NCBI GenBank assembly: GCA_951406725.2
Contig: OX597826.1
Span: 36,766,001-36,830,000 of the forward strand
Direction: 5' to 3'
Length of the DNA: 64,000 bases
Origin: Octopus vulgaris
Lineage: Eukaryota
Positions 19,131-20,107 of this stretch are shown here, piece by piece. The translations under genes and the position numbers were made by a program. The notes below the pieces were generated by a model. That model worked only from the letters and a program-made list of their open reading frames with translations. It was not told where the DNA came from and ran no database searches. Within the stretch, counting starts at the first letter, position 1. Each line of letters starts with the position of its first letter.

Positions 19131-19349
19131 GAGTAAGCACATAAATGCAAAACAAAGTGGAAAAATAGTACTCGAATACCAAAAGTAGAGCAATATGCTT
19201 TTTTACGAGAGCTGTAAAAGCATCACAAAATACTGTTGCTCTGAGTTTCAAGTTTCCTTTCGACGGATCAGTTCTGATCACAGCTCTCCGAAACGTGAAA
19301 ATCAGAGTAGAAGGTTTTTGTGATTGCTTTACAGCCTTAATATAAAAGT
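19131..19349. mobile_element. Second inverted-pair element of the same family, between (CA)n and (TA)n
   Basis: 19131-19230 aligns with the reverse complement of 20004-20105. The symmetry centre is GATCAG-TT-CTGATC, with degenerate hammerhead remnants on both arms. Confidence 0.65.
19233..19271 (-). ncRNA. Degenerate hammerhead motif, paralogue of 19934-19986
   Basis: Minus strand reads CUGAU-CCGUCGA-AAG-GAAA-CUU-GAA-ACUC-A-GAGC-A-ACAG. Stem II shows a compensatory change relative to the 19934 copy. Confidence 0.55.
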
Positions 19350-19460
19350 ATATATATATATATATATATATATATATATATATATATATATATATAGATA
19401 GATAGATAGATAGATAGATAGATAGACAGATAAGCAGATTGATAGGTACACATGTATAAG

Positions 19461-19725
19461 CGCAGGAATGGCTATGTGGTAAGAAGCTTGATTTCCAACC
19501 ACATCATTCCAGATCCTGTCCCACTGCGTGGCACCTTAGGCAAGTCTTCTACTATAGTCTCGGGCCAATCAAAGTATGTTTACATCCCCGTAACTTAGCA
19601 GTTCGGTGAAAGAGATCAATATAATAAGTACTAGGCTTACAAAGAATAAGTCTTGGGGTTGATTTATTCGACTAAAGGCGTAGCTCCAGCACGGCCTCAG
19701 TCAGATGACTGAAACAAGTGAACGA
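19461..19725 (+). mobile_element. SINE family A with internal deletion removing the microsatellite core
   Basis: The head (...CGGGCCAATCAAAG) is joined directly to the 3' half (TGTTTACATCCCCGTAACTTAG...). Confidence 0.85.
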
Positions 19726-19908
19726 AAAAACGATGAAATATACATACACACACTCACACGCACACACAGACACACATATATATATATGTATCTGTTTTGT
19801 ATCTGTTTATGTGTATGAGTATATATATGTATAAATGTGTGTACATAGAGGATATATATATATATATATATATATATATATATATATATATATATATATA
19901 TATATATA

Positions 19909-20107
19909 CTTTATTTAATAGCAGCAGAAATTCAACAAAACCTGTTACTCGGAGTTTCACGTTCCCGTTCGTCGGACAGTTTTGTTAACATTTGACACTA
20001 AGATTTTGTTGAATTTCTGCTGCTTTTAAATAAAGCATATTACTCTACCCCTGGTATTTGAGTACTCTTTTTTCCACCTTGTTTCACATTTATGTGTTTA
20101 CTCCGGT
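19909..20107. mobile_element. Inverted-pair hammerhead element flanked by (TA)n on both sides
   Basis: 32-nt inverted arms 19909-19940 and 20004-20035 match at 31/32. One arm follows the minus-strand hammerhead and the other continues as a tail ending at (TA)n. Confidence 0.7.
19934..19986 (-). ncRNA. Minimal type-I hammerhead ribozyme motif (U4C core variant)
   Basis: Minus strand reads AACAAAACUGU-CCGACGA-ACG-GGAA-CGU-GAA-ACUC-C-GAGU-A-ACAG-G-UUUUGUU. All three stems pair and the cleavage triplet is GUA. Confidence 0.7.

Follow-up and report, generated by a model that had tools for sequence, protein, structure and literature searches.

Hammerhead-like motifs with a C at core position 4 in a probable Hydra-like Penelope-like retrotransposon family of Octopus vulgaris

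Motifs and insertions at the locus

The window, meaning the whole stretch of 64,000 nucleotides of Octopus vulgaris DNA that was analysed, is AT-rich, microsatellite-rich and eukaryote-like, and carries two hammerhead-like motifs on its minus strand. Core positions were numbered, and 11 conserved core letters scored, according to the general hammerhead consensus. The motif referred to as copy 2 (19942-19979) has the type I layout, with three stems of 4, 3 and 3-4 bp arranged round the core and the structure open at stem I. Its stem I is CUGU/ACAG at 19979-19976/19945-19942 and can be extended to 19934/19986; the core CCGACGA occupies 19975-19969, with C3 at 19975, and is followed by the 3-bp stem II with a GNRA loop (ACG-GGAA-CGU), GAAA, the palindromic stem III (CUC-C-GAG) and UA. 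Ten of the 11 conserved letters are present, the sole exception being U4C, and the predicted cut falls after 19946, at a GUA triplet. The second motif, copy 1 (19233-19271), is decayed: it has the core CCGUCGA at 19266-19260, stem II AAG-GAAA-CUU, GAAA, CUC-A-GAG and CA, with 8/11 core letters (changes U4C, A6U and U16.1C) and a stem I bulged by one additional A on its 5' side. The fully canonical combination of CUGANGA, GAAA and UH is thus absent from copy 2 and the family that it represents (both 10/11), as it is from copy 1. U4C is itself a recorded natural variant, so that the change weighs against the label canonical but not against hammerhead-like function.

Both motifs had been reported in a preliminary description of this DNA, and their letters were found as given there. 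When positions 4, 6 and 7 and stem II were left unspecified, the search pattern matched exactly these two sites in the window and nothing in 100 shuffles. The stem III that had been written ACUC-N-GAGY is likewise present in its letters, but the Y concealed the U16.1C change, through which copy 1 has lost the conserved A15.1-U16.1 pair. When the full type I descriptor was used, copy 2 alone was found in the window, and 60 shuffles gave no strict and one relaxed match. The Rfam hammerhead models gave no match at the gathering score or up to E=10.

Each motif is contained in an insertion of 200-220 nt in which two arms meet head to head and the 3' ends are directed outward into microsatellites. 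The copies inserted separately, and the DNA that divides them contains a repeat of another kind. In copy 2, the short 3' end (19909-19941, minus strand) ends in (TA)n 37 nt past the predicted cut and abuts the (TA)n target run at 19853-19908; other such runs start at 19349 and 20107. The arm junction at 19987-20003, where summed contig depth drops from about one million to a few hundred, is followed by the inverted long arm (20004-20106, plus strand), which begins just past the hammerhead and reaches (TA)n after a tail of some 70 nt that contains a hairpin (20041-20064). The first 32 nt of this long arm are identical to the short arm at 31 positions. In copy 1 the arm roles are swapped, the motif-bearing arm being the long one there and the short one in copy 2: the long arm with its tail extends 3' of the motif (19130-19232, minus strand) to a (CA)n run, and the tail is 84% identical to that of copy 2 over 75 nt. 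The inverted short arm of copy 1 (19290-19348, plus strand) is a third, partial hammerhead that is 5'-truncated inside the stem II loop, retains CGU-GAAA and U16.1, and ends in (TA)n. Since the arms of copy 1 are identical at only 43 of 58 positions, against 31/32 in copy 2, copy 1 was taken to be the older insertion.

Three of the four arm ends abut (TA)n and one abuts (CA)n, and in all four sequencing runs described below the loose contig ends at the long end were (TA)n; many different inversion joints were present among the run contigs. Both insertions combine a 5'-truncated inverted copy with a tail at one end only, which is the arrangement described for Penelope-like elements (PLEs). The ORF of a PLE combines a telomerase-like RT with a GIY-YIG endonuclease. 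Neither truncated copy has an ORF attached to it in the window, inspection by eye of the window's 82 higher-complexity frames revealed no host exon, and a tblastn search of the window with three PLE protein pieces, taken from the related loci L015 and L017 described below, gave no hit at E<=0.01. The two local copies are, in themselves, ordinary transposon debris.

Other repeats were recorded in the same region. A SINE-like repeat lies between the copies at 19456-19735, and the window contains 16 more partial matches to it that are 67-82% identical; a 162-nt imperfect palindrome at 18639-18800, 79% self-complementary, resembles a MITE or fold-back element. The tail hairpin was located at 20041-20064 (plus strand) and at about 19168-19192 (minus strand) in the window, and at about 3163-3190 (plus strand) in L015. 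Its outer pair is A-U in copy 2, G-U in copy 1 and G-C in L015, and the family variants that affect it sit in the loop and the bulge. The hairpin is a candidate protein-binding or reverse-transcription start signal.

State of the family and its Hydra-like identity

The state of the family was read on copy 2, not copy 1, as the reference. Contigs of four sequencing runs (24 listed) were aligned on 19908-20106 at 80% likeness, with variants reported from a share of 2%. Runs X1 and X2 carried one organism label (A) and X3 another (B), while X4 was guessed to be RNA; the numbers of contigs aligned per run were 8152, 12482, 7056 and 655. Summed depth over the motif was 0.4-1.8 million in the three large runs, compared with 20-60 for single listed contigs, which suggests tens of thousands of family copies, the depth ratio not being a copy number. 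Depth in the core bin was 34-48% of the peak, and truncated or divergent copies are under-seen.

Among the variants listed, only two places within 19942-19979 vary. The centre of stem III (19951) was non-reference in 75-86% of depth, and U11.1G (19959) accounted for 11-14% of depth in each of the four runs and disrupts a stem II pair that no second change restores. At 19974, which is core position 4, no variant of at least 2% was listed in any of the four runs, under two organism labels. The same held, among the variants listed, for the other ten core letters, including A6 (19972) and U16.1 (19947), for the GUA triplet, for the eight paired letters of stem III and for 19967 and 19960, the pair that differs between the two copies; none of the four changes that copy 1 carries at A6, U16.1 and this pair reached 2%. 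The preliminary description had proposed that the C in the core is fixed in this subfamily, and a family consensus of canonical CUGA would have told against it. The consensus carries C4 instead, and C at core position 4 is supported as the family state within the limits of depth and listing.

Over the 62 nt of motif and tail hairpin, three of the four variable places fall on the 13 free positions (P about 0.026, post hoc), which gives modest family-level support for RNA structure; the fourth is the stem II pair that is broken without compensation. Many published Hydra motifs have U.U at the place of the 11.1 pair, and the pair at 19959 may be loose. Loose contig ends at 19981-19988 continued upstream in at least three different ways, one of which resembles the flank of copy 1; these differing continuations point to several subfamilies.

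Taken as a whole, the best explanation, and a probable one, is that the two motifs represent the hammerhead in the 3'-UTR (pseudo-LTR) of a highly abundant Penelope-like retrotransposon family of Hydra type. The clade assignment draws on non-coding features, the proteins of the Hydra clade being marked by RWK, DKT and CxCX5C and by the lack of CCHH, and the family was filed as Hydra-like and not as a member of Hydra. Hydra-clade hammerheads described by Craig et al. 2021 (PMC8557442) include those of Hydra-2_Amil, Hydra-1/2_Ajap, Penelope-3_HM and Penelope-16_HM, and the same source describes (TA)n targets for Hydra as well as inverted, 5'-truncated PLE copies with the tail at one end. The window family resembles that clade in its type I motif near the 3' end, its short and long 3' ends, its tail hairpin, its insertion into (TA)n and its inverted 5'-truncated arm, and copy 2 shares with Hydra-2_Amil stem I CUGU/ACAG, stem III ACUC-N-GAGU and the GUA triplet. 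File S2 of that paper gives 25 Hydra-clade families in 26 rows: stem III ACUC-N-GAGU occurs in 5 of the 25, stems II are mostly of at least 4 bp, and all 25 have CUGA, that is U4. The window family differs in having C4, a stem II of just 3 bp and no ORF seen here, so that the Hydra trait of a canonical hammerhead near the 3' end is matched in architecture but not in its core.

Among metazoans, the minimal hammerheads of PLEs (Cervera and de la Pena 2014, PMC4209133) also have a palindromic helix III, and many dispersed truncated copies were described there, some of them oppositely oriented and 100-700 bp apart. U4 is present in all 56 rows of Fig. S3 of that paper, in contrast to the C4 of the window family; U4 was required by the descriptor used there, and the core variant reported was U3-A8.

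Related motifs were sought by pattern scans of other contigs. In genome contigs, three loci (L015-L017), all in one metagenome-assembled record and together holding four U4 motif copies, have hammerheads with stem I and stem III as in the window and U4 in the core. Compared by eye, their sequences agree with that published for the coral element Hydra-2_Amil, and they are therefore probably host DNA. The record, which bears the title of a bacterial MAG, holds animal-type PLE pieces (RT, GIY-YIG, hammerheads and TA runs), which suggests host contamination. L015 shares with the window the head-to-head layout of short and long arms: the end of an endonuclease-type ORF is followed by the motif, which runs to a short end at (TA)n, and by an inverted long arm with the tail hairpin. 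The ORF piece resembles Hydra-2_Amil by eye; its 125-aa end gave no Pfam match, and a related L015 frame gave a weak GIY-YIG match (E 0.0011, below the cut-off). Another PLE frame, in L017, matched both RVT_1 and GIY-YIG above the Pfam cut-off, and the CxCX5C linker was seen in this relative only. The tail hairpins of L015 and the window share CUCUAC...GUA, a U bulge and GAG, a probable homology drawn from folding and comparison by eye, MAFFT having placed the two out of register.

The scan of metagenome contigs gave nine loci, eight of which had neither stem I nor stem II and were treated as chance matches. The ninth, L012 (971-1016, minus strand), is a real-looking U4 motif whose stem I has 6 bp and whose stem III is the palindrome of the window family; it lies downstream of, and opposite to, the end of an animal-like ORF. 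Five loci in viral contigs all lacked the stems, and a tighter pattern gave none. A C4 motif outside the organism group of the window was found in none of the viral, metagenome and genome contig scans.

Three other sources were considered for the element and set aside. Hydra-1_Obim, a family published from octopus, has a long stem II and another stem III and is distinct from that of the window. A Naiad origin was considered since octopus Naiads target (TA)n, and short-motif searches of the corresponding supplement gave no Naiad match. Non-LTR retrozymes are head-to-tail tandem units that each carry a hammerhead, whereas the copies here are inverted and independent insertions that flank an unrelated repeat.

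Dimer folding, activity and the stem II pair

The sequence ACUC-N-GAGU leaves a loop of 1 nt, which cannot close a 4-bp stem III, so that folding is expected only as a dimer. The self-duplex of this palindrome was calculated at -7.8 kcal/mol, and a two-strand hammerhead at -14.0 kcal/mol, compared with -2.0 for two monomers; in the minimum-energy dimer fold (-15.6 kcal/mol) pairing of the palindrome is retained, while stems I and II are lost. Monomer folds were no better than those of shuffled sequences (z 0.08 to 1.5). The short palindromic stem III with its free centre at 19951 is the trait of dimer-type PLE hammerheads, whose unstable palindromic helix III points to dimer folding (PMC4209133), and free variation at that centre is what a dimer predicts.

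On this basis the following course of events is proposed. The U4C change would have arisen in a source element and then been copied along with it. The RNA of the element would be reverse-transcribed into (TA)n by target priming from two start sites, giving the short and the long 3' ends, as for the anole PLE in vitro, and each insertion would result from the joining of two 5'-truncated arms head to head in a microsatellite. Folding would be possible solely for a dimer paired at the ACUC-N-GAGU palindrome, probably with a protein of the element assisting, and the motif would then cut slowly or not at all, full activity being dispensable for transposition. Copy 2 is near the family state, and copy 1 would be an older member of a subfamily, decayed since its insertion.

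It is judged about equally likely that the family motif has retained measurable cleavage, as a dimer or assisted by protein, and that it has not. The stronger version, that the high-copy family keeps a working but throttled CCGA hammerhead, active as a dimer or with the protein of the element, is put forward tentatively, at roughly one chance in three. PLE hammerheads cut weakly as dimers (PMC4209133), and that of the anole cuts only with protein. A viroid hammerhead has the same core change as the window family: the natural U4C variant has lower activity in vitro and yet allows infectivity (cited in Perreault et al. 2011, PMC3088659). It differs in being a variant of an RNA replicon with tertiary contacts, the window family having the change as its majority state in a minimal motif.

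Alternatively, at somewhat short of an even chance, the motif may be a dead relic in which U4C and a stem II shrunken to 3 bp inactivated the hammerhead of the source element. Pairwise mutagenesis of a type III hammerhead, in which all single and double changes of the CUGA turn other than a C3-G8 swap gave low activity, is consistent with such a loss, as are the stems II of at least 4 bp in most published Hydra motifs and the unmatched U11.1G at 11-14%. On this view, spread would have proceeded through a protein that recognises the 3' end, by its palindrome and tail hairpin, with no need for cleavage; core mutants of the anole PLE hammerhead do still insert in vitro. The uniformity of the family would then be due to descent from few source elements. 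The identity of the element is common to this and the best explanation, which part ways over activity alone. Against a relic, the ten other core letters and the GUA triplet have no listed variant of at least 2% while free positions vary, the activity of a U4C hammerhead suffices for viroid infectivity, and a standard search descriptor already permits CYGANGA.

The stem II pair was the other ground on which function had been argued, the exchange of C-G in copy 2 for A-U in copy 1 having been read in the preliminary description as covariation under selection. That reading was not borne out, since no variant of at least 2% is listed at 19967 or 19960, the 3' strand of stem II in copy 1's own inverted arm reads CGU and not CUU, and copy 1 is a decayed motif in which A6 and U16.1 are gone and stem I is bulged. 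In addition, when 5-6 random substitutions were simulated over 38 nt, 5-10% of trials produced a change on both sides of one of the 11 pairs with pairing preserved. The AAG/CUU stem most likely represents two private changes, and the paired difference is probably due to decay in the older copy. The hammerhead fold of the copy 1 monomer was calculated at +6.0 kcal/mol, against -1.0 kcal/mol for copy 2.

That the A-U pair is instead a selected compensatory change inherited from an active sister subfamily is unlikely. Copy 1 does show subfamily-type differences in both arms, two letters of its tail (20059 and 20067) occur at 3-9% in the family, the related L012 motif has A-U at the same stem II pair, and among four distinct motifs all three stem II pairs change on both sides, the rows having been picked by pattern. 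AAG/CUU could come from a rare or old subfamily. These points are countered by the lack of a listed variant at either paired position, by the CGU kept in the second arm, by the 43/58 identity of the arms and the two core-breaking changes, and by the frequency with which a double change arises by chance.

It is very improbable that the motifs are accidental resemblances that arose in repeat DNA, a reading that the absent Rfam hammerhead match and the non-significant folding z-scores would suit, but which is opposed by the lack of a strict descriptor match in the 60 shuffles and by stems I and III that are identical, bar the free centre, to those of Hydra-type hammerheads in the same place and layout, and which the homology with L015-L017 has already largely refuted.

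Novelty and significance

Earlier work has described PLE hammerheads, the Hydra architecture and, taken by itself, U4C. No report of C4 as the majority, or fixed, state of a retrotransposon family was found in the literature searched. Published lists of PLE hammerheads are biased in this respect, their descriptors requiring CUGA, and the family itself may already have been catalogued with the motif passed over.

PLE hammerheads cut slowly, one of them needs protein, and core mutants insert in vitro; a family with U4C at very high copy number provides a natural test of what these hammerheads do. If the motif is a relic, cleavage would be dispensable for spread in vivo. If the U4C motif cuts, its core would be a workable and fixed one, and searches confined to CUGA would undercount such motifs. 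Should the family keep a throttled CCGA hammerhead, some PLEs that have been called hammerhead-free may carry variant cores.
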